A DNA stretch of 64,000 nucleotides from Psammoneis japonica (GCA_008632985.1 QPGO01000004.1:248001-312000), one strand, 5' to 3'. Positions 1 to 64,000 are shown, counted from the first letter of the stretch. The notes: generated by a model from the letters alone, not told the origin. Translations and numbers: made by a program.

Positions 1-3000
1 TCTCATGAATTTTTCATGAGAGTGCGGCACATTGAAAAGAGTGAAATTTTGAATGTGTTCTACAGAAATTGTGGTCAGCAAAGCAGTGCAACAACACAGA
101 ACACAGCAACACAGTTGTTGACTTCATGTGTTGGTTTTTAGGATTTGCTGAGGGCACTGAACAGCCCAAAAAGGACAAGAAGCAATGTTGAACAAAAACC
201 GCAGCTGCGCAGTTTGTGGGTAAGAGCATCTCGTGTTGTTGCCGCTTTGGTCAACAAATGGTGTGAATGATGACATTGTTCATGATGTGTGCTCTCCTCT
301 TGTCGAGTTGATTCCATTTGATGGAATGTTGTGGTGTGAAGACCTGTGGCACGTTGTTTGCGTGGATTTCTGCACTGCGTTCACTGAGGAAAAAGCGGAG
401 TGAAGCCAAAACAGCACATGAATGTGGGTTCACTGCTTGTGTTCACCAACGTCATCACAGAAAGCATGCATGCCAGCATGACATGGTGAACATGAAGGCG
501 GTTGTCTTCACTTGTGATCTGTCACTTTGCTGCAACTGCCTGCCTGCCAGCAACTGCCAACTGCAGTGCACTGAGATGAGAAACACCACCTCCATCGTCA
601 GTGCAAAGAGAGCAGATCCCAGCCCCTGCGATTTTTGTAACTCTCTCACACCGCTCCTCTGCCCCCCAATCCCAGGCCTCTCAAATCCTCAGTCAGTCTC
701 AAGAACTTTCTTGGCATCACCCTCTCCAACCACCACCTCTCTCTTCTTCTTCTTTTGCCAACCCTTCCCTTCCCAACTCTCTCTGCTCCCACTGCCCACC
801 TGTCTGTGCTGTCAGCCTCCCTTTCTCCCCTCACCCCCAGCCCCCTGCCCCTGCTGCTCTCTGTGCATTGTGTTGCCTGCCACCTGCACCAGCCACCCCC
901 ATTTCTTCCCCACCCCAGCTGCCATTGTTGTGTCTGCTTCTGAGTTTCAAAATGACTTGATTTCACACTCAATGCTTGTCAAACTTTCTTGACTCTGCTG
1001 TTTCAGTGCTGGCACACAATCAACTCAGAACTCCCCCTTGCACAGGTCAACAAAACAGCTGATCTTTGAGACAACTGATTGTGCACAAAGTGCACATGTG
1101 AAGTCAGCTGCTCCAATTTTTCTTGAAAAAAAAAGGAACTGGAGCACCCTGGTTTTTCTCTTTAAAAAAGGAGTTGGAGCACCCTGTTTTTTTGTGGCAG
1201 TGTGAACTCATCACGACAGTGTGAAGGACATGCGCAATTGTTGAAAACAGCCAAACAACTTGATGAAAGAAACAAAAAAAGCAGCTCAAAGGTGCATCTG
1301 AAAGGCTGTGTGCAGGTTTCCATTGTTTTCTCATTAAAAATAAGTGCTCCCCAAAATGTTTTGTGTTTGTTGGTTGCTTGTGCCACCCTCCAAGCAACAT
1401 GGAGACAACAGCCGGCACTGCAAAACAACCAGATCTGAGAAAAAATGCAACAGAAATTGGGGGGAAGTCCACAAAGATTCACTTGCACAAAACACACAGT
1501 GAGACAGAAGAAGAGCAGGCTCAGTGCAGTGCCCCAGCACCTCAGCAGCACACGTGTGTCTCAATGTTAGAAAGTTGGGGTTTGACACCGTTTTTGGAGC
1601 ACAGACAGACAATGTTCAAGTGAAAGCAACAACACTGACAATTGTTGGCAACATGGTGAGTTCAGACAACTCAAAATGAAGTTGGGTCTCTTGCTTGCTT
1701 TTTTAGCTTCTGCACTTGGGCAACACAGCAATCAGCACAGAGTGGTGTTTGCAATCCACAGGGTGAGTTTAGGGATCAGCAAAACCAGCACAGATTGGTT
1801 GGCAGTGAGCCATGAAATTCCAACACTCACCTTGGATGAAAACACATGCCCAGGACAACATCAGCAACAGCGCCTTCTCTTCTCATTCTGTGCTCACCCC
1901 CCCACCCCCCACCCCCTCTCCCAGCTGCACAGCCAAAGTTCCAGAAGCAAGCCTCTTGTTCTCAATGGGGATGAGGAGTGCTTTCAAAAAAAAAACACAA
2001 TGTGCTTCAAACCTGCATGTGCAGAAAGACACCATGAGTTGTGTGGGCACCACTGTGCATGTGTGGCCCAGTGCACTTGCCTGTGGCCACATCTGCTTCC
2101 ACATCATTCAAAGATGCAAACATTTTGTGGTGTTTCTTCCATTGCTTTGACAATGGGTTCTGAGCATAACTCGATTGCTCTTGGGGGGGGGGGGGGGTGA
2201 CATTGACATTTTCAGAGTTCTTTTGGGCCACATTGTCTGACAGGGCAACAAAAGCTGGGCAAAAGGGGCAACCAAAGGTTGCTGCTGATCTCTTGTGGAT
2301 GCTGTTTGCTCTCAAGGGTTCAAGGAGCATCATCAACACCAAAGCCCATGTCCTTGCTCACTTGGAAAAGCTGTGATTCAAAGAAAAACATGTGGCTGTA
2401 GTTTGTGATCCATCAGGCCAAAGCATCATTCAAAGAAGGCTGCCATCAGCCAAGAAGCTGAGCACAACAGAGGGGCAGCATGCTGGTCCAAGCCACTCAG
2501 CCTGCATTGGGCTGAGATCATGAAAATGTGGTGTGCAGTGCAAGTGGAAACATGTGCAACAATTGATCAGAAGGCAAAGGGCACACTGCAAGAAAAGGTC
2601 TGCAAGCAAGTTGCCATGGAACCACACAAAATGGAGCTTCCAGTTGCAAGTGGTCCACACACCAAGCAGACTGCAAGATTTTTCAACCAACAGCACAGCA
2701 GCTCTCTGTGGACACGCTGGTGCTTTTCATTGGGAATGAAACCAATTTTTCATTTGTGGCAGAAGAAGCCTGTCCCCAGCTGACAAAGTTCAGATTTGAC
2801 ATGGAGAAGATGCAAAAGAAGAAATGCAGGATTTGTGGTGGTGATGAGGTTGGGGATGTCACTGTTGTGAGTGGCTTTGCAAGCAGGTGTCCCATGTTGG
2901 GAACTGAAAACTTGGCACCCACAGCAGAAAACAGACAGCAGTGGTTTCACAAACAGCCAGTGTGCCCCTTGATTGGTGGTGTTTTGGATGTCTGCTCCTG

Positions 3001-3329
3001 TTGTTTGATTGGCGCGGGGTTCTTGGTGGCAAGTGGAAATGAATTCCCTGCAAATTTAAAGAAAACTGCTGCATTTTCAGGCATGTCTCACATGCCATGA
3101 TTTGAGATGCCTTGGCACATTTGTGGGAAAGCAATTTGTTGCTGCCAAACTGTGATGTCAAGTGCCACAACCTTGTTGATGTCCTTCTGAAGTCAGCTCC
3201 ACCAAAAAATGAGAAAAACAAACAAACCTGGTTTAAAGTGCTGTTGCACCTTTGCCCAGCAACACCAGCACCAGCTGACCCACATCTCCGGCACACCCTG
3301 CCAGGGGTGCGGCAGAAGAAGTCAATGCA

Positions 3330-6300
3330 GACAGTCTGAATCGGCATCTCTCAGTGGAGTCACCCAATGGAAGCAACTGGTGATGGTGCGTGTGCCGCAA
3401 AGCACCAACTTCTTGGCTTCTTTGAGACTTTCTTTGAGTCTGGGCTGGACCATTGAAATCCAATTTTGTGTGTGCATTGTTGAAAAGGCTTTGTGCTCTT
3501 CTGCTGAGCTGAGCAGCACCTCAGTCTTTGGCCAAACATTCCTGGTGCTTGTTGTGCACAGCTGTCAACTCGGCTTGGACTTTTCGTTGCTGAGATGACT
3601 GCCTGGTGTCTGCATCATGTCCGTGTGCATGCTGGTTGTGCTCTTAACACAGATTCCACCATTGTTTCACATGAACAGTCCCACCTGCACTGTCCAATTT
3701 GGTGGCTGTTTGTTCTCTTCTTGGCAATTATGAAGGATGCCTGAGTCATGCAAATGTCCAGACTGGACCACATTCCAAAGAGTGGAGCACCTTCTGCCAA
3801 ACACTTGTTGCCTTCCTGCATCTGATTGAGCTTGCCACAGGGCTCTGCAGCAGCAGTCCAAATCATTGGGATGCACCATCTCATGGTTGAACCATGCTTG
3901 AAGAGAATCCAACAAAAAGTCGCTGAGTGTGGGCATGACATCAACCTGGTCACAACAACAACACACAAGCCTTGCAGGAACTTTCTGCGCCAGGCTTCAT
4001 TGTGCAGACATCGCAGCACATGATCTCTGTCTTCCATTGGATGCTCACAGTGCAGACAATGATGTGGTTGGACAGAATTGTGTCTGTGGACTGTCTTGTT
4101 GGTGGGCAGGAGATCATGAACAAGCTCAAATGTTCCAACTTGTTGCTTGGAATGCCTTTTTATGAGGATGGCATGAGCGCCCCAATCTGTCAGATCAACC
4201 ACACATCCAGATGCCACTGATTGTGCTCAACAATGTGCTCCAGGAGTTGTGGGGCAGCAGCAGTGCACCTGATTTGCCATTTGAAGCTGGGTGTCAAAGT
4301 GCCATCTTGCAGGATCAAATGAGAGTGACAGTGAGGAAGGGGCAGGACCATTGAAGTGTCCAAGTGCAATGTGGCATTGAGTGGAAGTGTGTGGACAGGG
4401 GCATGTCTGTCTTGGTGTCCTTTTGCCCACTTGACTTGCAAAGGAGATGAGAATGTTCTGGATCTGTGGGATTCTTCCATTGCAATGCGAGTGTGCAACA
4501 TCTCATTGACAACATCCCAGTCAGAGGCGAGGGTGTTGGCTCCATGGTGTTGAATGTGAAAAGCTCTGATGTCATCAGATTGGTCCCCGGGAGACAGAGC
4601 AGGAAGGGCAAAAGACATCTGCTTCAGACAAGACACCAGGGCTTTGTCATCACAATGCACGTCCATCTCCTGAAATTCTTTTCTTCGGTGGCATTCCACA
4701 AATTGGCAGATGAAGTGGATGACAGAGAGAATCCCGCATGCTTCTGCACGGCATGACAATGGTTGTCTTCTGAAAACTGGTCCTGCACAAGAATCTGATG
4801 ATGGAGCTCCTGTGAGTGCAATTGTCCATTCAAAAGCAGCTCCTTCATTCATGGAACCATCGCTCCCTGTGGTCAATGTTGAGGAAGAAAAGTTTTGGAT
4901 CAAAGTGTCAGGGGACACGTGAAATTCAAGCTCTGTGAACAACATTGCCTCCCATTGAGGTGAAGATTGCAGCACATCATGGAATGTGTCCAGAAACTGG
5001 GGAGATGGTGAATCCAGCAAAGAAGTGCAAGGCAAGTTGAATGTTCATCTGCTGTCTTCTGTTGCAGAGAGCTCAGCTGGAAATGATTTGTTGGATGGGA
5101 CCGGTGCTGTTTCGAGTTCTGTGACAGAGTTTGTTCTGGTGCCAATCACTTGAAAAATGTTGCACCCTGAGGGAGACTGATGCACAAATGATCCTCTGAG
5201 GGGGGGAAACACGCGGATGCCTGCATGTGCATCTTGGAAGGAGGCACTGACCAGTTGCTGAGTGGTTCTTTCAGTGTCTGTGATGATGGATGGCACAGGG
5301 AAGCACAGAACTTCTTCCATGTGGTCCAAGCTCCAGTTCCTGGTTTGTGCTGCTTGACATTGTTCAGAGCACTTGAACTGCTCTGAAGCAATGGGTCTCC
5401 AGCAACTTTTGTAGCATCCAAGGTCAAGTTGTCAGACAAAGTAATGTCAGACACAGACAGCACCTGCAAGCACAGACAACAGCTGCCAATCCATCTGATT
5501 TTGTGGTGGGAAAAGAGTTGAGATTGAAGGGCAATGTCCACAATGCACACTGGTCATTGTCACGTTGAAGAGGGAGCATGCCGGAATGTGTCAAGCACAC
5601 TTTGCCGTGAATCCTGTGTGAGAATGAATGGACTGAAGTGAACCAGCAGGATTCCATGTGTGGGAGTGCGGTGTTGACATCCCACAAGAAACTCGCTCCT
5701 GTTCCCAAGATCAACTGGATCCAGAAAATTCCATGTGCAAGAGTTTGTGGGGTTGATCTTCTCCCATCTTGAGGTTTGTGATGCCTCTGGAATGTTTCAA
5801 CAACTGCTGCACTTGAGCCACACCTTGTTCCATGTCCAGCAATCAAAATCCTCCGCCACCAAGAGATTGATGTCCAAACAGGATGAGTTGTTTTGCATTT
5901 CTGTTGCACCCACATTTGGTGAATGCAATCTGCGTTGCTTTTTGTTGAACAGCCAACAACTCTTTTGGCAGAAAAGTCGAGTTTGGAAGTGCATGAGTCA
6001 TCAAAGACAGGCGGCATGCATGGCAGCAATGCCATGTTTCTGTCTGATTGATGGGACAGGATCGGAGGAAGAGAGCTGTGATGTCACTTTTGGTCAGGAG
6101 TTTCTTCAAATGGGTCTTCTGGGTGCCAATTGGAGCAACGTAGTGTCCAAGCATTTTATGTGGAACACATGCCAAAAGTTGTTTGCTGGATTGGGAAGTG
6201 GGCCTGTCTGCTGAGAAGATTTTGATGTCAAGGTCGTCATGGCATGGGTGGACACACAGTTTGCCATGCTCAGTGAAGTCCCATTCCACCATGTGGAATG

Positions 6301-6548
6301 AGCACTTCAGCAACTCGAGTTCGTGACCAGCAGCATCAAGCAAATCACACCAAAGTTGGTCATCCTGTTGGAGGGAAAAGGACAAATCAAACGCAGAAGG
6401 TTGGGGACTTGCGCGAAAGTCATTGACCTGTTTAGATGTGTCATTGATGCACCCTCAATTGCAAACTTGGATGAAGAACCTGCCATTGGGGTTTTTGAAG
6501 TGTGCTCCTGTGGCTCTTGCATCAAAGATGTCTCAAAAAGGTGGCTGC
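3330..6548 (-). mobile_element. Ambal-like non-LTR retrotransposon, 3' part (RT C-terminal half, RNase H, C-terminal Zn finger), decayed
   Basis: Minus-strand fragments: GCINDT (from GYVDDT, ~6430-6455), QLWCDLLDAAGHELELLKCSF, RNase H motifs SDGS...SCRAEACG...HCDDKAL...SDWDV...KWAKGHQD, CLHC...EDRDHVLRC, ending RTITSCF near 3365. Many frameshifts. Confidence 0.8.
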
Positions 6549-6735
6549 TGATACAATGCCGAAGGTCAATGATGACAGAGGCATGAAAGACTCCCCAAGC
6601 ACTGGGACTGTGATGACACAAGCACTGGCAGATGAGAAAGTGAGAGGCAGATCTCAGAGAGATCTGCTCGTCCATCTAAATGGTCCGGTCATCATCCGCA
6701 CACAGTCTGTCCATCATGTGACAGATGGGCTGACA
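6549..6735 (-). repeat. 3' LTR of Copia element
   Basis: Aligns without gaps to 12960-13146; preceded on the minus strand by the purine tract GGGGAGGG. Confidence 0.95.
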
Positions 6736-6743
6736 CCCTCCCC
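6736..6743 (-). other. Polypurine tract
   Basis: ccctcccc on plus = GGGGAGGG on minus, abutting the 3' LTR. Confidence 0.8.
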
Positions 6744-9700
6744 TGATCTGTGACATCCCGAAAATAGAAGACAGTGCAGATCAAAACAAAGAATGGGGAT
6801 GATGTAAACAGAGTGATGAGAAGAAGGACACCAAAGGTGTCCAAGCCCAATGCGCATCAAACAACGGGGCAATGTGCAGCAGGGGAGGCCACCGCGGAAA
6901 AAATGTCAACGTCAGTGTCCCATCATGCATCGAGCATGGTGAGCATGGAGCACCCACCCAAGAGCCTTGGCAAGGTCATTGCTGGGGTTGACAATGCCAG
7001 GGACATGTCTGGTGACAATCTTGCCTGCTTCCTTCCATTCTTGAATCGCGAAGAACTGAGTCTCAATGTGGCGCGAACACTCGGTCGGAATCGAGTGATT
7101 GACGATCTTGATGGCTGATTCGTTGTCAACACACAAAGGGGTCAGCTTCATTTGGGAACAACCAAGGTCATGCAGTGCATGGCAAAGGCAAAGAACATGC
7201 TTGGCGGTGGTGCCAGCAGCACAGAATTCTGCTTCTGTAGAACTTGCAGCAGTCACCAACTGTGTCTTGCAACAAAAAGAGATGGCAGTGCCAGCCAACA
7301 TGCAAGCACATCCCGTCATAGAATGTCGGTTACGAAGATCATTTCTGCACGCAGCATCAAGGAAGGCGACAAGTTGATGGTCACACTCGGGAGCAGGGAA
7401 TGATGGGAGGGATGGATCGGGACTCAAGCGTTCATGCGGATGGGCAGGGAGGCTCGGGTCGCGTTCAGATTTCTTGGAGTTCAATTCCCAATGCTTGGTG
7501 CATTGAAGACACTTGCGTGCACCTTTGAGTGCATCACAGTGTGCTGCCGCAGGGCAAGTGGAGAACTTGGACAGGGTGGTGATGGCACAGCCAATGTTGA
7601 GTCGACAGACAACATGTGTGCATGCAATGGCTCACCAAGTGGGGCACAGCATCCAAAACCAGCAGCTTGTTGCAGCTCCGCATGTTCCGGTGTACCTTCA
7701 GCAGGCCCAATGTCAGTGCAAAGGTCACGAATGGAATCCACCGGGATTGGAGTCGCCTTGAAGTCATCAAGCAGTTCCTCATCACTTGGTGCAGACCAAC
7801 CGTGTGAGAGGCAAACACGGTCAATGCAATTGTGGACAGCAGTGCCAATCGAGTCATCACACTGATGAACATCCACGCCATTGAATTCCTCCAGGAGGCC
7901 AAGATGCTTGAAAGGTGGGGCAGTTTCCGAGTCCAATTGAAGGGCTTTGCCAATCCTAGATCGTCTTGGCAATGGACTCCTTGGGGCAAGCAATGGCAAA
8001 GTCATCAACCTGTCGAAGGAGCAAAATTTTTTGTCCGTCAAATGCAGCAGAGTGGACACACTTGTCGTGAGCAGTGTTCCGAAATAAAAGATTCACATCA
8101 GACAAGATGCCATCAATGTGATTCTCCCAGAGCATGCCGGCTTCTGGGTGTCCTTGGAGAGCATGTTGCATGGGAAGCACCACACTCCTGTCCAGCTCCT
8201 TTCCAAAGCAAGACTTGCACCAAGCAGCATGTGCATCGTCAACAGCAACATAGACAGGATGTGACGGGCGGGGAGAATGGGCACAGGCATCGCGGGCATC
8301 ACTGCCATGTGCCGGACAACCCACTGTAGCTGCCAGGGCAAAGAACATCCGCTGGTGTAACTGCTGGAAATGCTTGACAGCATTGTCATGGGTGAAGACT
8401 GGTTGATGATCAATTGACACAACATGCGCGCCTTTGATCTTGTTGCATGTCGCCTTCAAGTTCAAGAAGAGACAAGCAGCAGGGGAACCACGTTTAATGT
8501 CTGAGACGAAAACACATTGGCACAGATCATCCACAGCCAAAGAGAAGCCACAAGTGGAATCCGTGAAAGGCCCTTTCATGGTGCGTGTGATGGTCTTGGC
8601 AAAAGGGTTACCATGAAAGTGAAATCTCATCCACAGCAGTCTCTTCAGTGTCAGCAGGGAGGGCAGCACCAGCCTGAGTGCATTGCAAATGAACAACATT
8701 TGGGGGGACAGAGTCATGGGATAAATCATTCATCCCCTCATCATGCCGGATGTGCTTGGCCAGCTTTGCACGTGATGTCTCGGTGTCGCACCACAAAATG
8801 TTCTTGGTGGCATCTGGAAGATGTCCCAAGAAAATTCCTTTGCGTGACATGGTCCGGAATTTTGCTGGACGGTGATTCGAAGCACGCACCCAAACGCGAC
8901 AACCAAACATGCGGAAGTTCCGAAAATCATCCTTCCAACAAGTGGCAAGTGCAATCGGAGCAGCAGTCTGCCCCCGGGATGGTGTGGCATTCTTGATCCG
9001 AATAAAATGATGAAAAGCACAGGGCCAAAACTTGATCCGCACTGACAAGCATTGCCCGAATGGCATTGGCAATGGTCAAATGACTCCGTTCAACTGGGCC
9101 ACTCTGATTTGAAGCGTCTTTCCCAGTGGGACGAGTTGCACAATGAAAGTCATCCTTGAAGAGTCGCCGAACCACCGGGTTGTTGTGCAACTCACCTCCT
9201 TGATCCAGAAAAACACATTTGTCAGGACATTTCGGCAAGTGATCCTCCAGAAAGTGGCAAATCCAATTCAAAGGGGTGGCCTTTGAGACACAAGTCGCAC
9301 CATGGAGGCGCTTTGTTGTGTGGTCATAAACAGTGATCCAACATGTCTCTCCACTCAACCCAACACAGTCCTTGGTGTGCTCGGTGTTCTTGGAGCAGAG
9401 GCCAGAGAAAGAAAAGTCTGCTGTGAGACCTTGGCAGGGTTGGGTGGCAGTCAAGGTGGCATCAGGTCCAGCGGGTTCCTTCTTCTGTTTAGCCCAGACA
9501 CAAGTGGGGCAAGTGTCAAGTCAAGGGAGGATGCACCATGTGCAAACTTTGGAATGCCATCAACATGTTTGTGAGCATGGCAAAGACAGTGATCACTGGG
9601 GTGCCCAAGACGTTGATGCCATAAAAGGCGTTCCATGTTGGCCTTGAGGGATTGGATGGGAGTGTTCTTCTCAGTGTGCTGCTCAAACGGAGTGTCTTGA

Positions 9701-12700
9701 CATGCTCAGGGGATTAACTTCCTTTGCATGCGGAGAGCATCATTTTGGCGTGCACGACATGTTTCAATCATGTGGGCCGAGACCGCTTCACATTCATCTG
9801 CAAAGGAGGGGTCGCTTGTCTTGAGGCGCTCGATTGATGCATCCAGCTCATCATGGGATTCTGGGAGGATGAGTGGGTGAGTGTGACACTTGCCATTGAT
9901 CAGTTTCCCATGAAAATGACATCCTGACTCTTGCACAAACAATGCCGTGCAACAAACTTGCAGGTGCCAAGATCATGGAACTTGAGCACACAATCAATGT
10001 TGCAATCCATGCAACAGGCGCCATTTTGGCAGAGCAGCAATCGCTCATCAACCAAGGTGGATTGGAACTGTGGGTGGTGACATGCACAAATCTCAACACA
10101 GCCACAGGAGTTCTCCGCAGGCATGCAAAGGCATCCAAAGCTGATTGGGACAGCTTCATGTCCAAGAGCTGGATTGACAGCAAGCGGGCACGGGGCGGAA
10201 GGAGCAAATGCCTGGTGTCGATGCAGGAGATCATGATCTCCAGTGCAGGCAATGTTGGCACCAGTGTCAAGTTGAGCACAGCGCTCATTTGGTGCAAACT
10301 TGACAGCATTGACAGCACAGGCAGTGCGGAGTGGATCTGGTGGATCCAACTCATCATCGTGAGGTGAGTCAATCAGGGCAATGCTTGCAGAATTCGCTGA
10401 GGTGAAACCATCCTCAACAGCAATGTCGTCACAGGTGAGATCAACAAACTCAGCAAAAAAATCATTTTCCTCTGAATCTTCCCTCCCCTGTTCCAAAGAG
10501 TCCGGAACAGGATCAACACCCAATGTGCCATCAGGGAGAATGGGATTGTCATCAGGCAACTTGGTGGTGTCAGGAGAGACCTTCGAGTCGGGGGCACAGT
10601 CTACATCAGTCGTCGAAGAAAGAGGCAGTGCAGCGGTAGATGATGAGACGGTCAGTCCCTCTTTCACAGTCATCCCGCTGACATTGGTCTTGTCTCGGTG
10701 GGCAGAAAATGGGCTGCGTCGGAGATCCGAAACTGGCTGCAATGGCCCGATTGAAAATCTGGAGACTGGACACCAGAACCAGATGGAGAATCAGATTGTC
10801 CTTGATGAGGCGGCAACAAACCTTGTGGTCCTTGAAATTCAGAGGCACGCATGGCCGCTTCTTGCTTCAAGAATTGACAAAAACGCATGTGGAAGCCCTT
10901 GATGTGTGGATTGTTGTTCAAGACAGGACACTCATGGAACAAGTGTTGTCAGAACAAACAAGGCATGGTTTCTTGGAGGCCTCTGTGGGAGTGACCTTGA
11001 GTTTGTGTGCCGAAGCCGAGTGGACATGATGGAGAAGACGGTCTTAATCTGCAGAAGGCACTTTAAGGTCATTCAATTCACCACAGAGGGAGTCAAAGGC
11101 ATCCTGGGGGAGTTGTTGGTGCTGGCAGCTTCAGGTGACTCGTCAGCATCCTCTGCAATGGGAGGGACATCCGGAACAGTCAAGGAATTGACATCGGCAG
11201 TTGTGCAATGCGCATCTACAGGGTTTCGATCCCATGTGCGGCATGGATTGCAAGGACTCGCATGAGTTGCAAGAGATGGACCATCCAACTGATGAAGGAA
11301 GTCAGACAGAGTCTCAACAATCTGTGCATCCGTGTGCTTCTTGAGCACAGCAGGAGACTTCTTTTCATCCCCAGCAGCACAGATGAGAACTTGGAGCACC
11401 CAGTGTTCTTGACAAAAATGGTCATCTCTCGTGAGTCATCCAACGTAGAGTCCGCATCAAAGACACAAGCATGCAGCTGTAGAAAATCCTTGAAACACAA
11501 GTGACAGTCCGTCAATGACAGATTTCCTTGAGTGGGGTGGGAATCTACCAATCCAGCAGCCTCGTGATCAAAAGCTGGATGGTTCTCGTAGACAATCTGT
11601 TTGAGAGCCTTGCAGCCATTGCCATGGCATGAGGCAACAATCCGATGACACTTGCTGTTCTTGGGGAACACATCAGACTTGGAAAGGATCTTGTGAAAGG
11701 AACTTTGAGCTTCTTTACAATGAACACACATTCGTTGGGGCAAGTCATTGTCTTTGCCGTCACCAATCTCAAAACCCTTCTCACCACCATGATCCTTGGT
11801 GAAGCACCACAAAGGATGCACGTAGCATCCCGAGTCGAATGAGTGACTTGGAAGTTTTGGTGCCATGCACACATCCCAGCGGGAGAGTCATCATGGCAGA
11901 TTGGAGGTTCCCTGAACAGCATCTTCTGGTCAGGGGTCAAGCTCATGACAAACAGGGCACCATCATTGAGAATGATGTGATCAGACCCATCAACACAGAG
12001 TGGCAGAATCCATGGTCACAATGGACAAGAGAGCTCTTCAGGGTGACGGCACCACATTCTTTGTGGTCGTAGCATGCACGAACATCGGGAGGCAGGGTGT
12101 TGGGATTGAAGAGACATTTGGATGCTGTGGAAGTTGCAGGAGTTCCAGAGGTCTTGCCAGAGGTGGCAGAAGGCAGAGCATTGCTCGACGCAAACTTGTC
12201 AAGGGCAGTGATTAAGTCATCCACACCAACAGTTGCAGGTCCTGAACTGGTCGTAGATGAGGGTGCAGGCTGTGGGTTCTGCGGGTGGGGCGTGAAAGAG
12301 AACTCCTTCCAATCCTGATAATTCCACATCATGTTGGGGCCAACACAAATGTTTTGTGTAGAGATGACAATGTGTGTGACTTGATCGTGGTTCCGGAGAT
12401 TGGTCTTGATGATCAATGAGAGAGCTGTGGGCATCATGCGGATCGCACAAGGCCTGGTGGAGTCTGTGGTGCAGGACGCAGCTTGATCCACAATCATCTT
12501 GACAGGCTGCATGTCCATGGGATGAACTGTGCAAGGTGGGAACGCCGTGTTGACGATGTGATCTTGAAATGGGTCAACAAAATCTTTCTTCGATTGAGCA
12601 TGTTCTGGATCATCAAAGAATGGGTCCAGATCAAATGTTGAATCCGCACACATCTTGTTCAAACATGTGTGGAGATGAGGTGTTGTTGTGTGTTCTTGAA

Positions 12701-12947
12701 ATTCACAATGGATCTCTGCAATGGATGTCGGAGCAGCCTTTGCAAGGTCGGGAGATGCCATGGTTGCACTTGGTGAGAGCATTTTTGGTCATGCACACGT
12801 GGAAATCTGGTGTGTTTCTATGATCATGAAAAATGCCGGGAAAGCGAGAAAAAAATTGTTGGAACAGACAACGAGGCTTGCTCGGTCGGCTCACAAAACA
12901 AATGAATTGAGACAGAAAGCTTGGCGCAGAGTTCTGTGGCACAGCAC

Positions 12948-12959
12948 AAGGCCACAACC
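12948..12959 (-). other. Primer binding site (initiator tRNA-Met fragment type), mutated
   Basis: Minus strand reads GGTTGTGGCC directly after the 5' LTR; resembles the Copia PBS GGTTATGGGCCC with TA->TG. Confidence 0.6.
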
Positions 12960-27997: not shown

Positions 27998-27999
27998 TG

Positions 28000-52028: not shown

Positions 52029-52471
52029 GGTGGTGTTGATTGTGTCTTTGTTTAGCAAGTGCTTGTGTCGCATAACGCGCAACCAGCACTATGTACGGTA
52101 CGTCGGGGCGCTCTGCGCGGCAACACTCTAAACCCACCGCAATCGGGGATCGAATCAATCTCTTTTGTTCGTTCCAATGCCGCACCGTTTCCACATTGGC
52201 CTCGGCTATAAAATGCTGCTAAAGGCAAACTAGTGGTCAATTCAGAGGCAACATTGACTATGTCTGCGGATTAGGATTCTCAGTCAAGACTCCCTCCGGA
52301 TATATAGTTCCACAGGTCGACAGACGGCGTCACCAATGCGATGAGCACAACAAAGATCCAAACACATGGAGATGAATTTCATTCTTTGTCGTCCTTTAAA
52401 CGTGAAAATGAGTTACACCCAAGCTAGACGATTCCATGCAAGCAGCATGTCACGCACCTTCGTTATCTATA

Positions 52472-53472: not shown

Positions 53473-53992
53473 TTGCAGCTTTCACTCGTCGTTTTAGAAT
53501 CAATGTGCGTGACTTTCTCTGCAGACAGGAGACTTGCTGACATGATATGCATTACATCTCGAACCAACTCGCCGACATGTTCAAGTTCAAGGTGCAAGGT
53601 GAGACTGCGCAACAAACGCGCACGAATTTCTTGCCATTCTCGGTTCTTGTGCATCGATAGATCCAAGATGTCATTCAGTCTCTCACGGCACACACTAAAC
53701 CGCCCTGGTCACAAAATAACTGGCATGCACTCTAGAGAGTACCGTATTGGGATACCATCATGGATTTGGTATCTGGGGCTCCACAGTTCGTCGAAAGTAG
53801 GTGTTGGGCTCTTTGCTGTGAAGTTTATTTACTAGACTACCCAAAACCCACACTCACAAGATGACTCCGTGACATTGTTCAAGTTTCATAAAGTAAGGGT
53901 TTGATGCACACAACGAACCTGCTTAGATGTTCACACTACTCAATTGTATACGGTTGGACAAACGGCGAAGTCAGAGGGAAGGAAAGTAGGGT

Positions 53993-54775
53993 TCAGAACA
54001 GCGCCTGCAACATTCTTGCAGAAGAAGACAGAAGGAGGGCCATCCGTGAAGTTGTTGCCGTTATGTAGATGGGAACCGATGAGATTGGTATTGAAATAGT
54101 CTTGTTGTCAAAGATGTCGTCGCATCCGAGACCCTTCCCGCTTGTGTTTAAACAAAACTTGCATCGAATGTCTTTTGTCTTGATGTCCTTGAGGATGATG
54201 GTAGATTCCTCCAAAAAGATTTCGTCATCTGTAGTAACATCCGGATCTCCTGCGTACCAAACGACTACGGTTCCTTCAGCTCTAGCTACGCCAGGGCCGA
54301 GAGGGTTGTGTTTCGCCCCAATGCAATCGACTGGGGCACCCCCACTTTGCTGTAGGCCTGTTTCTTCCATGACATTGTCAATGTTCTCGCCTGTGGCATC
54401 TCTGGTTGAAAACGTGAAGATCTTGCCTAATTCGCCATCAGACTCATCTCCAGAATAGTAGAGTTGACCACGAAGTACTCCAACCGCTGAAGGATTGCGG
54501 TAAAAGCTGTAATCGGTGTGCGGGTTGAAATACACGTCGCACTCACAGTCGGTGTCGGTGCATTGTCCAGCGTCATATGCATCGACACAATTTCTCAAGC
54601 TGCTGAGTAGCGCATCCTTCACGGCGCCATCCAAGCCGACGTTAAACTCACCTTTCAAGGGAGAAGTAATCGTGTACGTCACTTCGTTTTGAAGGCCTCT
54701 CGTCCCTTTGGCAACGGCACAAGGGACCGTGAGGCTGGCCGCAAGTCCAAAGATGACACTTACGAAGAGATGCAT
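53993..54775 (-). CDS. Secreted Cys-containing protein with RGL motif after the signal peptide
   Basis: ATG ORF of 260 aa: MHLFVSVIFGLAASLTVPCAVA-KGTRGL. 3' end uncertain. Confidence 0.75.
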   Translation of the reverse strand: MHLFVSVIFGLAASLTVPCAVAKGTRGLQNEVTYTITSPLKGEFNVGLDGAVKDALLSSLRNCVDAYDAGQCTDTDCECDVYFNPHTDYSFYRNPSAVGVLRGQLYYSGDESDGELGKIFTFSTRDATGENIDNVMEETGLQQSGGAPVDCIGAKHNPLGPGVARAEGTVVVWYAGDPDVTTDDEIFLEESTIILKDIKTKDIRCKFCLNTSGKGLGCDDIFDNKTISIPISSVPIYITATTSRMALLLSSSARMLQALF

Positions 54776-56261
54776 GCTACTTTACAGAAATATCAAGTTA
54801 TCTGGACGGCTAGGGCAGAAAAGTGAATTCTTCCTTTTGCCATTGACAATCGCCGCGGCATGAAAAATGTGATTGAAGGATCTTCGGACAGAGATCGAAG
54901 ATCGGCGGAAAGCAAGGTGACGCATGCCACTGCATAAATACTGCATGCCGCCACCGAAGTTTTTGTGCGACGTCAGAATTTTTATCAATAAGGTCATCAG
55001 ACAGTCATCGGTCATCGTGTTATCTTTTCTGCGCGACCGTGGACACCCTGCGAACAAGCCCATTTACAGCATTTGTTGGTGGCCGGTTGACGATGCTGTA
55101 GACCCCATGACCCCTCTGTGTTTTCACTTCAAAGTAAAGACAGCTAAATGGGTGGCAACAACCCCCAAGTTGTGTCTTTACTCCAGTGCAAAACAAGCTC
55201 TAAATGGGTGGCGATGAAGCATTTGGGCACAAGCACTGTCAAACAGGCAAAACGGGGTGCCCAAGCCGAAACTGCCTTCAAACTTCTGCACCAGTCAACT
55301 GCAACATTTTGATGTTCATCTCAAAACATCTGTTGATTTTCTCTCTGTTCATTGCCATGTTGGTTTTCCATGTCTCTTCATTGGCATCCCATCAAAAACA
55401 GACAAAGATGAGTCAACCCAACACAAGAAGTGTGCGCAGCCTCATTTCAGCCAGCACTCAAAATGGAATGAAAGATTCAGCCATGCACAGGAAGAGCTCA
55501 GTGCAGGTGCAACAAGCAAAGAGGGAGCAGCAACAAGAGCAGACAACAAGAAAAAAGCAAAAAGCCAGTGGTCAAACAGCGGCAATCCAGACAATGATGA
55601 GGTTGAGAAAGAGGGCCAGCAACGGGCTCATTCACGAAGCACAAGCTGCAGGCATGCAACAAACTGTTCAACTGACTCAAGACATGTGCATTGGATTTCA
55701 GCCCAACAGGAAACATGAGCCATTTTGAAAATGGCCACTGCTCTTTGGTTCTCCTCTGTGTGGATCTTTGTCAGACCCCGCGCTGAAAACTTCTCCTGGT
55801 TTTCAGAGTCATCAAGCAAGACATCTGAGGAGGATGGCTCAGATGGTGAAGCAGGGCATGCACTGAGTTGGGAAGACTTTTCCAACCCACCAATCTTTTT
55901 TTTTTTACTTCAAAGGACAGGTGGTGACATCTTCATTGGCTGAAGCACAAAGCGTGCTGTGCGCTCCATCCTGGAAATGCTGATTCCATCCGGCACCTTG
56001 GATTCTCAAAACTGAGTTTGTCATGCATGTGGGGAGACAGGAGAAATGAAGCATCAGCAAGCCATTGGCACTGCTGCACCATCATGAAAAAAGATGCAGA
56101 CAATGAGAATGATGACATCACTTGCACTTTTTGTGACTCTGCTGTGGTGAGCCAAGTGCCAGAACATGTCGAAGGTTGGTGATGGCTGCAGGCTGACGTC
56201 AGGAGGTGCCACAAAATGGAGCCTCAACAAGCAGTGATCACCTCCATTTTGTGGGGAAAAA

Positions 56262-56564
56262 NNNNNNNNNNNNNNNNNNNNNNNNNNNNNNNNNNNNNNN
56301 NNNNNNNNNNNNNNNNNNNNNNNNNNNNNNNNNNNNNNNNNNNNNNNNNNNNNNNNNNNNNNNNNNNNNNNNNNNNNNNNNNNNNNNNNNNNNNNNNNNN
56401 NNNNNNNNNNNNNNNNNNNNNNNNNNNNNNNNNNNNNNNNNNNNNNNNNNNNNNNNNNNNNNNNNNNNNNNNNNNNNNNNNNNNNNNNNNNNNNNNNNNN
56501 NNNNNNNNNNNNNNNNNNNNNNNNNNNNNNNNNNNNNNNNNNNNNNNNNNNNNNNNNNNNNNNN
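56262..56564. other. Assembly gap (303 N) flanked by 28-bp perfect inverted repeats
   Basis: caagcagtgatcacctccattttgtggg (56228-56255) is the reverse complement of 56565-56592. Confidence 0.95.
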
Positions 56565-56599
56565 CCCACAAAATGGAGGTGATCACTGCTTGTGACCAA

Positions 56600-58050
56600 A
56601 TGAGATCATCACCTGCTTGCAGCATGAGTGCCCTTGGCTTTTTGAAGTCCTTGACAGAGCAACACAAGCCAAGTGTCATGTGACGAAAGCTGCCACGTGG
56701 TGCAATTGCACGGATTGTCGGTGCAAATGTCCAGACAAGCAGAGTCAGATTGAAAAGCAGACTTTGCACTTTGACATTGACAACAACAGGGCCAAAACAC
56801 AAGTGCCATCTCTCAATCACCTGTTGGAAGCAACCACACAAGAAATTGAGTCAGAAACTCTGCATTGTGGACACAAAACAACAATGAATGGAGGTCCACT
56901 CCTGTCGGGTGATCATTTCATGACAACTGGAAAGGTGGTTCTCACCAACAATCAAAGAGGATTTGCAAGCATGCATTCAGTTGTGAATGAATTTGGCAAG
57001 ATGCCACTCTTCCACCATGCAGCTGGCACAACATCATTGGAGGTTGAAGACAGCCTCCAAGGTTTGAACAGGAGGCACCAACTCCATGGCTTCAAGGGTC
57101 CCATTGCATTTGCAACAGATCAGTGCTGCAACAAGAGGGCATTTTATGAAGGAGCCAGGAACAACAGGGAAAAGCTGATCTTTCATTCTTTAATTCCCAA
57201 GACAAGAAAAAATGGATGTCACTGTGAAGAGTGATGCCACAAGCAATGATGGTGCACTCTGATTTTGATCAAGTTCTGGCAGGGTTGGAAGTCATGGAAC
57301 ACTTGGATGTGCCCAAGCCATCTGTTGCATTTTCTGCAAAGGCAGTGGTGGGTGCAGCTGTTGACAACATCATGTCAAAGTGCATTGCCAATGGTTGGGA
57401 GGACACAACATTGATTGATTTGGAATGGGCTGTCAAGAGCAAAAAAGGCCCTGACATTGTTCAAGCAACTGCCATGGATTCAGAGACCTGTGTGTTCAAC
57501 AAGCCTTTCCCAACTGGCTTGGTCACTCTCCTTGAGAGTCATCTGCATTGAAGAAACTGCCCTTGAAGATTTCCGCTGACCCAAACAAGTCATCTCAGAG
57601 GATTGGTGCCAAGTCAATGAATTGTGCAAATCTTCAAGACACGCTAAAGGAAGAACACAGTGTTGTGCAAATGGCAACTGTGGGTCTCTCCAACACATGC
57701 AAAGAACTGTCAGGAGATGTGGTGTCAACAAAGACAACCATCTTCACTTGTTTGATTGGAGAAGTTCCAAGAATTGGTGACAAGTGACAAGCACCACCAA
57801 CACGCCACTTTGGATGACTCATGCATCCGAATGATGGCACATTTTAAAATGCTGTTAGAAATGCCACACACAGATCCAAAAGCCAATCTTGCCCCTTCTT
57901 TGGAAGAACAAAAGGAAAATCAGAAACTCCTTCTGTGTGCAAGTGACAAGTCTGCAGTTGCTGCAAAACCAACCCTCCTGCATGCAGGGCAACTGACAAC
58001 ACCCTGCAGAGATTGGGAAATTTGATTGGCTTCTCAACAGACAGGTTTTG
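56600..58050 (+). mobile_element. Decayed transposase-like ORF followed by a DEDDy 3'-5' exonuclease domain
   Basis: LSGDH...SVVNEFG...LQGLNRRH..HGF.GP..FATDQCC resembles DUF6729-associated transposon proteins; then IDLEW...DIVQ...FPTGLVTLLES and QHATLDD (from YAALD). Confidence 0.55.
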
Positions 58051-60199
58051 TTTCTCCCTCTTTGGTGAAGAGCTGGAGTCTTGCAATGTCATTTTGCCAA
58101 CAACTTCTGACTTGTCATGAAGTGACTGAATGGTGTCCTCATCCAATTTCTCCAGTTGACTCTCATCCAGATGGGCACAGAGGAATGGGCACCACCCAGA
58201 TGACTCAATGCAGCCAAGTGCACAGTGCAAGTGCAAAGGCTCTCCACAGGAGTGAGAAAGTCCTGAGTGTCACATCAAGGCACAAACTGCAATGCAAGCA
58301 TTTTTTTGGGGGGGGGAGGGGGGGGCTTGTTGTCCTCTGATGACAAGACAAAGATGAAGCTGTTTTCTCTACATCAGTGACAATGTCTTTGGGGACTTGT
58401 TTGAGCTTGTCATCTTCCAAGTTGATGACCACCCCACAAACTTTAGAGCAGAAATGCAAGTTGGCCTCCTTGAATGGTTTTTTTTAGCAAACTGCAAAAG
58501 TTCACAACAACAGCAATTTTCTGGAGAAATGAGCTGAAGTGGCACGGGCATGCTTGTCAGCAAAAGGAAACTTCACATCTCAAAACAAAAGCTCAAGGCC
58601 CACAACTGCAGCTGTCTAGCTGAGGACCAAGGGCACCTCCCCTTGTGACTTTCCAACTTTGGAAGGATCCACTGCAACAGCAATTTTTGGCTGCAGGAGG
58701 CATCCTGCTTTCCTTGTGTTCTAAAACACGCCTTGCTTGAGCATCTGGGTCAACCAAGCCACACCATTTTAGGACAAACATGACTTCATCATTCCAAGTG
58801 TTGAGCTTCAAGTCAAGACCATCAAAGACTTTTTGACAGTTTTTTGAGAGAGCAAAACTTCAGCACAGTGCAATGTGTTTGCAATGGAGACAAGCATTTT
58901 GACCAACTCTGGCAGATCTGCTGGCTTTGTCATCAACTGTCCCTTTGATCAAAAAGTGATGCAGTCCCAAAATGAGCAGAAACCAGTCTCACATGATGGT
59001 TTAAATGAAGCTCATTGGCAACCAACTGGCAGAAAGAGGATGAAAATTTTGTGTCAAACCAGTGGTTGGTGGTTTTGTTGTGAGTCTGATGCAGTCATCT
59101 CATTGCAGCAGCTGATCTCATTTGGCTTGCCATTCATGATGCACCTGCTGCATTGAAGCACAGGACTTGCACTCTTTGGCATGGTCTTGTCATCCAGGGA
59201 CTCATGGTGAGTTGTTTTGGACAGGTCAATGCTGCACTGCAGTGGAAACCTTGACCAGAACTTTTGTCTGACACTTGCAGCTTCTTCAACTCTGGAAGCT
59301 TGGGTGTGCACTCTGGATCCTGCTTTGTCAGCTGCTGCTCTGTCTTTTTCTGTGGCTCAGTTGGCTTGGGTTTCATGGGCTCTGACTTCAGCTGTGGCCC
59401 TGGCTTGTTGTTCATTTGGCATTGGCTCTGGCTGGGGCACTGGCTTGCTTGGCTTTGTCTGCTTTGACTCTGGCTTGAGTTTCAGACCTGGCTCCATTGA
59501 CTTTGGCTGTGGCTCCTGCTTTTTTGCTTTGCCATCAGCTCTTGACTTGATGGATTGGGCTCCTGCTCATGCTTTGACTTGGTTGGTTTCACCAGAACAT
59601 CTTCTTTGGGGGAATCATCCATTGTGAGAGAGATCCTGCTTCATCCCCTTGGACACACAGGCCTCCATTTGTGGCACCACTGCACCACAGCTTGTGTTGG
59701 AACATCCAGAAAAAACAGGAAATCTGAGGAACCTGGATGTGTTGAAGAGAAGACATTGTTGCTCCTGACATGGAAGACTTGGTGACTCTTTGCCATTGGA
59801 ATTTCATCATCACCAATCTCTCTTGCCTTTCTGTTTGTTGCACTCTTTAGAGCAAATTATTTGGTTTCTTTGGATTGTGCAATTCTGTTGCATTGGTGCC
59901 ACCAGGTGTCTGTTGCATTGCAGGTTTGAAGTTTGTGTTGACAACTTCCAGCCAAACCACAGCCACTGCAGCCAAGTGGCTGAGGCAAGACAACGAGTGG
60001 CACAGGAAGCCTTGTGGGACTCCCTTTTGGTGACATTAACTTGCTGGTTCAACATTCACTCCAAAGAGCCTCTGGCACTGCATTTGGTGCTGAACAACAC
60101 TGTTCCATCTGATTTGACTGACTGTCATTGAGTGCCTGCACAATGAGCAGAAGAGGAAGCAGCAGATCTGGCAACTGAGGCTGAGGATGCAGCTGGTCA

Positions 60200-63100
60200 T
60201 GGAACAGGTGACAAGAGCCACAGGTCTTCTGGCTCAAAGAAAAAAACAATCATCAAGAACCACTTTCAGCCTGAGATTGAGCTCTGTCATCCTTCATCAC
60301 CAAACAGCAACTCATGCAATGCAACACATGAAGACATCAAGGAGAAGATTGCATGACACATGTGCAGAAGGAGTGCACTCAAGGCATGCATTTGGCAAGA
60401 AGACATGAAGTGCAAGGACTTTGGTTCTGAGAAACCAAGTCAAGTGCAGCCATGACAGTGTGCCAAGAGAGGGAGACACAAACAGTTGGTCAGAGCTGGA
60501 AAAAAATGCAACCAGAGGAAAAAGAGCTGGGGTGCCCACATGAGGTGGACCTCCATGAATGCAATGACAAGATGAGGCAGTTCAAAGAGAACAAAACTGC
60601 CACACTTGCCATGATTGCAGATGATTGTTGTGCCAAATGCCAAACAGACAAAGCAGGGAGTGCAAGGCAATCCCAGTTCAACAAAAATTGGGGACAATCT
60701 GGTCAAACCACTGAAGCTCATTCAATCACTTGCACTCAACTCCATGAGATGTTGACACCCATTTCACACACTGGCAACCAAATCCCTGTGGAACATGCTG
60801 GATGTGAAATGACAAGATAACAAGTTGCTGAATGACAACCTCTCAACAGCACATTCAACAATCAATGAGATGACACAAATGAAAGTCTCAGGAACAAGAT
60901 GCCAGATGGATTCATTTCCAATGCCAAGGAGTGCAAGGACAGAGCATTGCAGTGAAAAGCAAGTGCTGAAAGATGCAGCACTTGCGACATGGACAACATT
61001 TCTGTTTGTGGAAAATGGCAACAATTGCCCCCCACCCAAGAGCTTGAAGAAAAGCCATGTTAGAGACTGCAGCCTGGGCAAGGGCACACATCCTGAGACC
61101 CTTGACAAGCAACAGATGCACTGCTGAGTCATCCAAAGACAATGGCCCTTGCAAGAGACACAACAAGAAGAACAATGAGTGCACAAACAACAAGAACAGC
61201 AACAATGAGAGCAAGAGCAAGAGGTCTGACCATGCAAAAAACCAGAGTCATGCCCAGAAAGGCAATCAGAGTGACACTTCAGTGTGCCACTGTTGCAATG
61301 AACTAAATCACAAGTCTCCAGACTGCAAGCATTTGAACAATGTTGCACTCAACAGCTGATTCAAGAATGCTGGCATTGAGCTGGACACCAGGGAACAGAG
61401 TCACACACAAAAATGAGATGAAGATGCCTTGTTGGTGGACAGCAACAACGCCAGTGTTGACACCACCAGATCCAATTGATCAACATGTTCCAGCCAAAGC
61501 AGGTGTGCTGCATTGCATGGATTGCAGCTGGCAAACAAGTGACTGGAGACAAGCATGAGCCAGGCCAATGAAGACATTGGCATGGATGAGACAATCCTTG
61601 ACAATGGCTCCACCCTCAGCATGGCAGCAAGCCAGAGACCACTGCACAATGTGTGGTGGGTGAAGATCAAGATTGATCTGTCCACAAGTGCAGGTGGCAA
61701 AGATCAAGATTGATGGGTGGGGGGGCAGCATGAAGCTCAGATCACAGAGTGCAGCAGCGAACATCCTCAGTTTAAAGGACGTGAAGAGCAAGCACTGTGT
61801 CACACGTGACTGGACAAGAAGACTGGCAAGCAAGTTCCAGAAGTTCTTTGACCATGCAAAAGATCTTCAAGAGGGCAAGTTGTGCATTGGCATGCTGTCA
61901 AGGAAGAAGAAGTGGAGCAAGAAGAATGACAAGAAGCACAGGAGTGCATCTAGAGCTGCTTTTCTGACAGCAGAGCAGAGCTCTACTGGCTGCTCCAAGA
62001 GGGAGGTTGCAAATGCTGAGCAAGTGCTCAGACTTTGTTGCAAAGCTGAAATTCCCAGTGTGAGAGATTGCAAGCCTTTTTTGCAATCAAACCAGGTGAA
62101 GAGCTTGTCCATGACTGTGCAACATTGTGCCTGAAAATGTGGACAGGATGGTGGCCATTTGGGTCATTAAAAAAGGAAAGACCAAACACGCACATCAGCC
62201 CCACAAGAAGAACAACATGATGGCAATTCTGCCTGAGACATCATGCAAGAAGTAGAGGAGAGAAGGCATGATCCTCTGCATTGACATTGTGGAAGTGTGC
62301 AGAGCCAAGTTGCTGTGCGCAATTGACAAGACAATCAAGTGTCAATCAAGTGTGAGATTGCACTCAAAGAAGCACGTTGATGTGTGCAGCATGCTGGACA
62401 TGATGGTGTGCCAGCACACCACAGCTTTGTTCAAGATTGACTTTGTTGAGTGTGATTCTGAGTTCAAGAACATGCCGGCAAAAGCCACAGATGGCATGAA
62501 TCTAGAACTGATGTTTGCAAACACACCAGCGACCATGTTCCCAAAGTTGAGCAAAGCATTGAGATCATCAAGGAGCAAACTTGAGCCACAGCACACCACC
62601 TGCCACACAAGATGATGCCCAAGAAGTTTGTGTGAGCATGCCATGATCAAGAGCACTGTGATGGCAAACATGCACCCATGGAAGGAAAGAATCTCTGACA
62701 CGTGCAGTCCACACACTGTCATGCAACAAAGAAACCTTGACCATGACAAGCACTTCAAGTTTGCCTTCAGCTCATTTGTCTTGTCTTGCATTGAAAACAA
62801 CCCAACAAACACCATGGCTGCACACGGCATTAACAGCATGCACTTGCAACCACATTTTGACATTCCTGGGGGTGGTCACTGCTCTGTGAATTCACACATT
62901 ATGGGGAAGCTGCTAAACCCATGCAAGTGCACTGCTGCACCCTTGACTGACAAATGCACACAAGCAGTTGACAAGATAACCTCAGCACAAGGCATCAAAG
63001 ACTTCAAATTTGTGGGCAAATGTGGGGACAATCTGCCCAATGCGGATTGGACTGCAGGAGCAGACAATGACAACAGCAAAGACAAAAGTGACAGCAAAGA

Positions 63101-64000
63101 CAAGAATGAGCACAAAAGCACCAGCTGTGTGACAGAATCTGAAGACAAAGATTGTGAAAACACCCCTGATTCAGATGGTGAACATGAAGAAGCAAATGAG
63201 ATGCCAGCAGGTGAAAAATCCAGTCCCAGTCAACAGCAGGAGAAGCAAGAAGACTGAAAGAGACAAAGCACCCACAGAGGAGACAAGAGGAGAAGAGAAG
63301 CTGGAGAAAGAGGCAACCAAGATGCCAGCCAGAGTGACAAGGAGTGGCACAAGATTTGGGGCATCCCACAACATGAAGTCACATGAACACAGAGAAAAGA
63401 CAGTTCAATTGCAGGAGTGGCAGATGCAGAAGCAGAGCAAGAAGAGCAGAACAAATGTGAGCCCCAATCCAGGGGACAACAACATTGAGTGTGATGCAGA
63501 AAGAGGAATGGTTTCAGCACAATTTGTGTGCAACAAGATCAATGACCAGGTCCAATCAGGAAAGAGCATTTCCTTTGCCCAACAGCATTTGCCACATGAA
63601 AGCCTCAAAGTGTTTGGCCAGAAGGAGCCCAGGCACAATGCCTCAGAGAAGGAGATGAAACAACTTTGTGACAGGGTGTGCTTTGCACCAACATCAGTCA
63701 AAGATGACATGACTTGAGCTGAGAGGACCAGTGCTGTGATTGCCTCAATGTTCCTGATGGAGAACCAAGATGGTTGCATGAAATGGCAAATGGTCTGCAA
63801 AGGAAAACTGACCAAAGAATGGATGAACAAGGATGAGTCAGCAAGTCCAACAGTGTTGCTGGAAGGAACACTGATGACAGCAGTCATTGATGCCATGTGG
63901 AAGAGTGCAATGCAATGAGCATTGATGCACTGAGCATGTTTGTGCAGACACAGATTCCAGAGCCCAAAGAAGTCAAAAACCAGATTGTGATGACTGCAGG
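60200..64000 (+). mobile_element. Second Ty1/Copia (CoDi-type) element, decayed, running off the window
   Basis: Zn knuckle CHCCNELNHKSPDC, protease ILDNGSTLS, ANILSL.DV, integrase HVPKVEQSI and NLDHDKH, RT start KEMKQLCDRVCFAP...MFLMENQDG...SASPTV...MTAVIDA. No LTR identified. Confidence 0.85.

Follow-up and report, generated by a model that had tools for sequence, protein, structure and literature searches.

Repeat-restricted conversion of TpA to TpG and CpA in a genome segment of the diatom Psammoneis japonica: a candidate genome-defence mutation process

Introduction

The context-specific mutation processes known from repeated DNA, namely repeat-induced point mutation (RIP) in fungi, decay of 5-methylcytosine (5mC) and hypermutation by APOBEC enzymes, all change C:G to T:A. 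In fungal RIP, which acts mostly at CpA, creates TpA and lowers the G+C content, saturating transitions on both strands stay confined to repeats with little leakage and kill the open reading frames (ORFs) of transposons; its thresholds are a TpA/ApT ratio of at least 0.89 and a (CpA+TpG)/(ApC+GpT) ratio of at most 1.03 (PMC7884421). We describe here a stretch of 64,000 nucleotides from the diatom Psammoneis japonica (GCA_008632985.1, QPGO01000004.1:248001-312000; this whole stretch is called the window below) with three repeat islands, one of which carries a Copia-type long terminal repeat (LTR) retroelement. The islands resemble RIP products in the confinement of transitions to repeats and differ from them in chemistry, since A:T has become G:C, TpA has been destroyed, CpA and TpG have been created and G+C is unchanged.

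TadA/ADAT-type adenosine deaminases target A after U, and the UAC motif of bacterial TadA recodes Tyr to Cys; hypoxanthine, the product of adenine deamination, pairs with C and gives clean A-to-G transitions. The likeness of TadA/ADAT and ADAR to the process in the islands thus lies in the reading of deaminated A as G, in the 5' U/T preference and in the Tyr-to-Cys change. In contrast to the islands, which are changed on both strands and over whole domains, TadA, ADAR and APOBEC have RNA or single-stranded cDNA as substrate, and their traces are strand-asymmetric. APOBEC hypermutation of LTR elements is described as a known host defence in a passage of PMC4866542. Deamination of 5mC explains the conversion of CpG to TpG and CpA, which in the window occupies exactly the territory of the TA loss, but it cannot remove TpA. 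The available part of the classic paper on diatom retrotransposons reports CpG methylation only (PMC2806351), and a diatom DNA methyltransferase, DNMT4, is presented in part of PMC9998398 as perhaps related to the RIP factor RID and as occurring only in some diatoms. Among bacterial systems, very short patch (VSP) repair turns a TA-containing word into CA and TG words by T:G-to-C:G correction, according to a section of PMC5337935. VSP repair is genome-wide and acts on one pentanucleotide, whereas in the islands all TpA is affected, RTAY most, CTAG is not special and the loss is about 95 %. In a search of open-access papers and bioRxiv we found no account of repeat mutation from TpA to TpG/CpA in diatoms or elsewhere.

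Results

Dinucleotide composition was expressed as the observed/expected (O/E) ratio, in 1-kb profiles and as totals for each region. The window consists of island A (1..14510), gene block 1 (14511..17967), island B (17968..33980), gene block 2 (33981..55201) and island C (55202..64000), with 39.3 kb of islands and 24.7 kb of gene blocks. The original prediction, made from the sequence, was that the islands are nearly free of TA while the adjacent genes are ordinary, and the counts bear this out. The islands contained 151 TA dinucleotides and the gene blocks 1108, corresponding to a TA O/E of 0.05-0.10 in the former (0.08, 0.05 and 0.05 for islands A, B and C) and of 0.50-0.64 in the latter (0.50 for gene block 1 and 0.64 for gene block 2). 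CG was depleted too, with 478 occurrences in the islands versus 1273 in the gene blocks and an O/E of 0.08-0.44 (0.31, 0.18 and 0.08 for islands A, B and C, and 0.44 for the Copia element) versus 0.83-0.98 (0.83 and 0.98 for the two blocks); the depletion was strongest in island C. The O/E of TG and CA reached 1.6-1.9 in the islands compared to 1.1-1.3 in the gene blocks, and G+C was about 0.47-0.50 in both. An apparent dip in G+C at 56-57 kb is due to an assembly gap of 303 N at 56262-56564, inside island C.

TA accounted for 4.49 % of the dinucleotides in the genes and for 0.39 % in the islands. Between genes and islands, TA changed by -4.10 and CG by -3.93 percentage points, TG by +3.49 and CA by +4.32. 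The combined deficit of TA and CG (8.02 points) is thus close to the combined surplus of TG and CA (7.81 points), which indicates that nearly all losses were transitions; roughly half of the excess TG and CA (4.1 of 8.0 points) derives from TA. Under the assumption of equilibrium, a TG+CA share of 22 % against 0.39 % for TA means that TpA is lost, per base, at least about 28 times as fast as ordinary transitions occur. Among the island triplets, TAT (12) and TAC (29) were rare in comparison with TGT (960), TGC (1153), CAT (1011) and CAC (927), and the stop triplets comprised 66 TAA, 45 TAG and 1067 TGA. Because TGA is nearly the sole remaining stop, the islands are rich in long spurious ORFs; stop-to-stop frames of at least 90 codons numbered 184, on both strands.

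The borders of the islands are sharp, within tens of bases, and common to TA and CG. Both dinucleotides are back at 14511-14527, the limits of island B are given by the last TA before it at 17967 and the next TA at 33981, and island C is preceded by a final TA at 55201. Surviving TAs were scattered over the islands in a Poisson-like manner, with no unmutated patches. The gene-block DNA outside ORFs of at least 120 codons (7.6 kb) had a TA O/E of 0.77 and a CG O/E of 1.06. Since this intergenic, non-ORF DNA has normal TA, the bias is not genome-wide, and the restriction to repeats that had been proposed holds within the window. The ORF of an ABC-type ATPase (14428-15786) starts within TA- and CG-free DNA (14428-14510); the true start of the gene is probably located after the composition switch near 14511.

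The flanking bases of the surviving TAs were then classified as RTAY, mixed or YTAR. The counts were 4/76/71 in the islands and 326/577/205 in the genes (chi-square p = 2e-19), and their order was alike in island A (2/43/27), island B (2/24/24) and island C (0/9/20). All four RTAY words had almost vanished from the islands: ATAT (0 in islands, 88 in genes), GTAT (0 and 73), ATAC (1 and 80) and GTAC (3 and 85). The YTAR words TTAA (30 and 47), TTAG (19 and 52), CTAA (15 and 46) and CTAG (7 and 60) survived to a larger extent. Renewed formation of TA out of TG and CA fails to account for this preference (p = 2e-13). The preferred target is the palindromic RTAY, far ahead of YTAR; on a single strand this reads as A within T-A-Y, which is equivalent to T within R-T-A. 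The gains per 10 kb, 253 for RCAR plus YTGY versus 131 for RTGR plus YCAY, fit RTAY as a split between classes; only this class-level split fits, as the mass balance at the level of single tetranucleotides gave no correlation (r = 0.03). Surviving CpG in the islands was highest in G/C flanks (CCGC, CCGG and GCGG, 0.40-0.51 of the gene level) and rarest in A/T flanks (TCGA, ACGA and GCGA, about 0.15 of the gene level). CpG decay therefore has a preference of its own, unlike the RTAY preference of TA loss.

The direction of the change was established in the Copia-type LTR retroelement of island A (6340..13664, minus strand; TA O/E 0.10, CG O/E 0.44). Its frameshifted pol (6915..10277, minus strand) includes integrase, an SH3-like domain, reverse transcriptase (RT) and RNase H, the SH3_retrovirus match having an E value of 1.7e-8. 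Aligned by tblastn to 25 full-length Copia polyproteins with 30-57 % identity, it was collinear with them, for example with residues 91-1277 of P0001, and showed the Copia domain order. A column was counted as conserved Tyr when at least 5 of the 25 references were aligned and at least 70 % of these had Tyr. Tyr was kept in 0/17 such columns, which had 8 Cys, 6 His, 2 Trp and 1 Ser instead, whereas 201/247 of the remaining conserved columns were kept (e.g. Trp 7/7, His 15/16, Gln 9/9 and Pro 22/24). Opposite the 35 Tyr of P0001, the closest reference, we found 16 Cys, 13 His and no Tyr. Arg was also frequently replaced by Cys or His, as CpG decay is expected to do.

Cys, which results from A>G on the coding strand, occupied 10 sites and His, which results from T>C, 7 sites. 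The two were interleaved along pol, so both strands were hit, in agreement with the prediction that TA became TG as well as CA. The altered motifs on which that prediction was built (GCIND, CGTGQG, GELH, DCKSAC, LDHDKH and WHDW) are all present; alignment confirms a change from Tyr to Cys or His for the Copia element only. The choice between Cys and His according to the preceding base went in the predicted direction without being significant (n=17), and T>C at codon position 2 offered too few cases. A>G at the first position of conserved Ile, Met, Thr, Asn or Lys codons was preceded by T in 6/7 instances. In the unchanged A-initial codons the preceding base was T in 2/43 and C in 24/43 (Fisher p = 1.2e-5 versus the A>G codons). 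This result is polarised, context-specific and independent of Tyr. The trace is ADAR/TadA-like in that A-to-G follows a 5' T, and it is neither strand-asymmetric nor limited to a retroelement. As the TA O/E of the element is already 0.10 while its CG O/E is still 0.44, TA was lost no more slowly than CpG decayed.

A 188-bp direct repeat, probably an LTR remnant, is found on the plus strand at 6548..6735 (left copy) and 12959..13146 (right copy), and repeat junctions in the contigs (6370->13157 and 6532->13205) agree with this assignment. The two copies differ at 23 positions, 21 of which are exchanges among TG, CA, CG and TA and 2 of another kind. The 21 comprise 16 positions that form 8 double swaps between TG and CA, 3 CA/CG, 1 CG/TG and 1 CA/TA. 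A double swap requires that an ancestral CG or TA was hit once in each copy, which places the mutation after the duplication and its rate far above background. Of CG, four half-converted sites and one site common to both copies remain; on these counts, a simple binomial estimate gives about 2 swaps with a CG ancestor. Compared with the 4 single-hit CG sites, the 8 double swaps would thus be in excess of a CpG origin alone, and the majority of them should have come from TA ancestors, with the reserve that the numbers are small.

The composition of relatives was compared at 30 related Copia loci in metagenome contigs, and 30/30 had a TA O/E of 0.45-0.83 with ordinary CG. This comparison, together with the Copia pol alignment and the divergence of the 188-bp pair after duplication, establishes that TA was lost by mutation after insertion and is not an ancestral composition. 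A scan of viral contigs for related Copia loci returned none, and a homologue search with 6915-7631 gave no copy above 54 % identity. At the protein level, 10/182 Copia relatives (8/150 for RT and 2/32 for the RNase H region) were nearly free of Tyr and rich in Cys and His: P0028, P0035, P0036, P0096, P0112, P0113, P0146, P0148, P0287 and P0292. The 8 RT relatives had less than 1.2 % Tyr and five of them had none. These proteins stem from ENA, JGI and Logan metagenome or run assemblies, and their choices of Cys or His at conserved Tyr columns differ from those of the window and from each other. Such environmental fragments suggest that the same process may operate in wild populations or further species.

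The sequencing runs that match the window come from one sample of one study and are possibly the source of the assembly. Contigs of run X1 (k-mer depth about 55-66, longest 315 kb) matched the TA-poor sequence across the borders, at 13529-15759 with 3 differences, 15825-18734 with 7 and 5224-6352 with 5, an agreement that speaks against a miscalling artefact; runs X2 and X3 covered almost none of the stretch. The summed depth of the islands was 145-3900, compared to about 60 for single-copy DNA, and the islands are therefore repeated. It amounted to 3x-60x the single-copy level in island A and to 145-800 over 18-25 kb in island B, with single-copy depth (55-66) in gene block 1. At 6.3-13.7 kb, which contains the Copia element, a depth of 1200-3900 corresponds to about 20-60 genome copies at an identity of at least 80 %. 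Transitions between copies were balanced (A>G 672, G>A 694, C>T 650, T>C 622), and transversions numbered 84-117 per type. The best 36 of more than 3400 differing places included 18 transitions in the Copia element (6340-13664), one of which was TA>CA.

Measured with the RIP indices, the islands are inverted, with a TpA/ApT of 0.066 and a (CpA+TpG)/(ApC+GpT) of 1.95. The direction is hence opposite to that of RIP, as predicted, whereas the restriction to repeats is of the RIP type: the depth is multi-copy in the islands and single-copy in the genes, both strands are hit and the limits are sharp.

The repeat families were searched for among 206 island ORFs (150 + 29 + 27), and Pfam gave SH3_retrovirus as the single significant match; RVT_2 (E 0.029) and zf-RVT (E 0.0036) stayed below the Pfam cutoffs. 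The zf-RVT match belongs to a possible non-LTR (LINE-like) remnant at 3618..5044 (minus strand), for which the leads are weak; an Atlas look-up pointed to RNase H at 4193-5044 (0.92), to be taken as a lead only. Island B had no Pfam match at E<=1e-4, its ORF at 23287-24123 had no match in a homologue search, and the 27 ORFs of island C had no Pfam match at E<=0.01. Three island ORFs, including that of the LINE-like remnant, gave no useful match to PDB sequences. The labels LINE, Ngaro and DNA transposon thus found no confirmation in Pfam, PDB or homologue searches, and the statement that DNA transposons were hit rests on these labels.

Besides the ABC-type ATPase ORF of gene block 1, the gene blocks code for a PPR protein, a Menin homologue (50232-52082, minus strand, Pfam E 9e-40) and, adjoining the latter, a CpeT/CpcT-like protein (52472-53188, minus strand, E 7.6e-13), all three in gene block 2. 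The Menin homologue is conserved across diatoms: every relative with a name was a diatom (Seminavis, Skeletonema, Stephanodiscus, Thalassiosira, Nitzschia and others), with 35-47 % identity, and the best matches without a name had 55 %. The CpeT/CpcT family is known for phycobiliprotein lyases, and the host here is without phycobilisomes. Short tandem or near-tandem repeats with 72-83 % identity occur in gene block 2, whose TA is ordinary overall, at 36262-36565 (first pair, inside ORF 35453-37003) and at 41418-41645.

Discussion

The phenomenon is very probably real and as described. In the three islands a mutational process of genomic DNA has converted TpA to TpG and CpA throughout, on both strands and after insertion of the elements. 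It runs alongside CpG-to-TpG/CpA decay within common borders and spares the adjacent genes and non-coding DNA. That it acts at the DNA level follows from the strand symmetry, the coverage of whole islands and the independent outcomes in the repeat pair; the original prediction reached the same conclusion partly from DNA transposons, and that part of its argument depends on the unconfirmed labels. We infer that the process is aimed at silenced, presumably CpG-methylated, repeat chromatin and that it changes TpA at least about 30 times faster than background transitions arise. CpG decay as the whole cause does not agree with the fall of TA from 4.49 % to 0.39 % or with the loss of Tyr codons.

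As an explanation we propose that adenine at TpA in repeat DNA would be enzymatically deaminated to hypoxanthine, which would be read as G in copying. Deamination on either strand would turn TA into TG or CA and inactivate the elements; Tyr codons would become Cys or His codons, and TAA and TAG would vanish. The TadA motif UAC fits the T-A-Y preference. We assign to this explanation as a whole a rough probability of 0.3, and several points weigh against it. To our knowledge no natural adenine deaminase acts on genomic double-stranded DNA, and TpA is self-complementary, so that the sequence cannot separate A from T as the primary target. Polarity is established, by alignment, in a single element, the Copia retroelement, and for islands B and C neither Pfam nor homologue searches named a repeat family. 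The signature was found in 0/30 metagenome Copia DNA loci, which leaves the window with no second DNA example. The matching runs belong to one sample and study, so the read-level confirmation is not independent, and a single TA>CA among the 18 transitions in the best 36 differing places gives no sign that the process is still running. Homology, chromatin state and methylation may each serve as the targeting cue.

Thymine rather than adenine could be the base that is altered. A TET/JBP-type dioxygenase would make 5-hydroxymethyluracil (5hmU) or 5-formyluracil at TpA of silenced repeats, and mispairing with G would change T to C. TpA and methylated CpG are both symmetric 5-methylpyrimidine pairs, so a single reader or enzyme might recognise the two, and the depletion of TA and CG within identical borders and the equivalence of R-T-A to T-A-Y agree with this. 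Part of PMC11071213 reports that 5hmU of dinoflagellates is enriched over repeats and that older work gave TA and TC contexts, and a passage of a PNAS 2024 paper describes a 5hmU-producing enzyme that silences dinoflagellate transposons (PMC11572971). The TA preference was however absent in Breviolum, according to the same part of PMC11071213. These precedents are from dinoflagellates, and our analysis gave no evidence that diatoms have this modification or enzyme. Moreover, 5hmU:A is generally held to be weakly mutagenic, and dinoflagellates tolerate very high levels of 5hmU. We regard thymine modification as unlikely, and a VSP-like misdirection of mismatch repair, in which an enzyme that repairs 5mC deamination also fixes replicative T:G at TpA to C:G, as still less likely. 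For such repair there is a precedent in the scarcity of CTAG in E. coli and Salmonella (a passage of PMC5337935, citing Bhagwat and McClelland 1992); it would give clean transitions, TA loss and CpG decay on common territory, and a CpG depletion weaker than that of TA in the younger Copia element. But a drive from T:G to C:G should rebuild CpG from TpG, and the CG O/E of 0.08-0.18 in the older islands, that is a strong CpG depletion, argues against any general drive of this kind. A TpA-specific form also implies CpA methylation, whereas the methylation reported for diatoms in the available part of PMC2806351 is at CpG.

The remaining alternatives appear very improbable to us, and to the same degree. 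If an ADAR-like or APOBEC-like enzyme edited the RNA or cDNA of retroelements in the course of retrotransposition, and reinsertion passed the changes on, this would agree with the A-to-G change and its 5' U/T preference, as in ADAR and TadA, and the sole element with proven polarity is indeed a retroelement. Yet the strands are about equally hit (Cys 10, His 7), entire islands including non-coding DNA are affected in a Poisson-like manner, and the probable LTR pair has different outcomes at 8 dinucleotides, which places the change after integration. No special process would be needed if a genome-wide TA/CG bias were masked by selection in genes, or if the elements were ancestrally or adaptively poor in TA and CpG. 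Many RNA viruses suppress both UpA and CpG, and the islands are old and degraded, with frameshifts. This is opposed by the non-ORF intergenic DNA (TA O/E 0.77, CG 1.06), by the normal TA of all 30 related Copia loci and by the change of composition within tens of bases; in addition, Tyr is impossible without TA and 0/17 Tyr were kept, so that the copies are dead rather than adapted. An artefact of sequencing or assembly, such as long-read miscalls at modified bases, would be compatible with the origin of the runs from one sample and study, possibly the source of the assembly, and with a library type that is not on record. Against it stand the X1 contigs, whose depth of about 60 and length of up to 315 kb are typical of accurate reads and which match the TA-poor sequence and its borders, and the near-Tyr-free Copia fragments in unrelated metagenome assemblies.

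We consider it possible, at somewhat below even odds, that the lineage to which this diatom belongs has a RIP-like defence of opposite chemistry. An enzyme aimed at silenced repeats would turn A:T into G:C at TpA of genomic double-stranded DNA, with RTAY as its best site, either by deaminating adenine or through a thymine modification that miscodes, keeping G+C constant and erasing all Tyr codons, TAA and TAG of transposons. DNMT4 could be relevant to the C-to-T half of the signal, not to TpA.

In the islands, gene finders and profile-based annotation of transposons are misled; the elements are almost invisible to profiles (1/206 ORFs), and the inference of transposon age and family in diatoms would be affected. 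Next to the known processes, which run from C:G to T:A, a domain-restricted change of A:T to G:C at TpA would add a new mechanism of genome defence or epigenetic decay and offers a way towards a DNA enzyme from nature that converts adenine or thymine. A defence of this kind, if true, would be the first DNA mutator in nature that runs from A:T to G:C and is directed against mobile elements, and new base-editing enzymes might be drawn from it.

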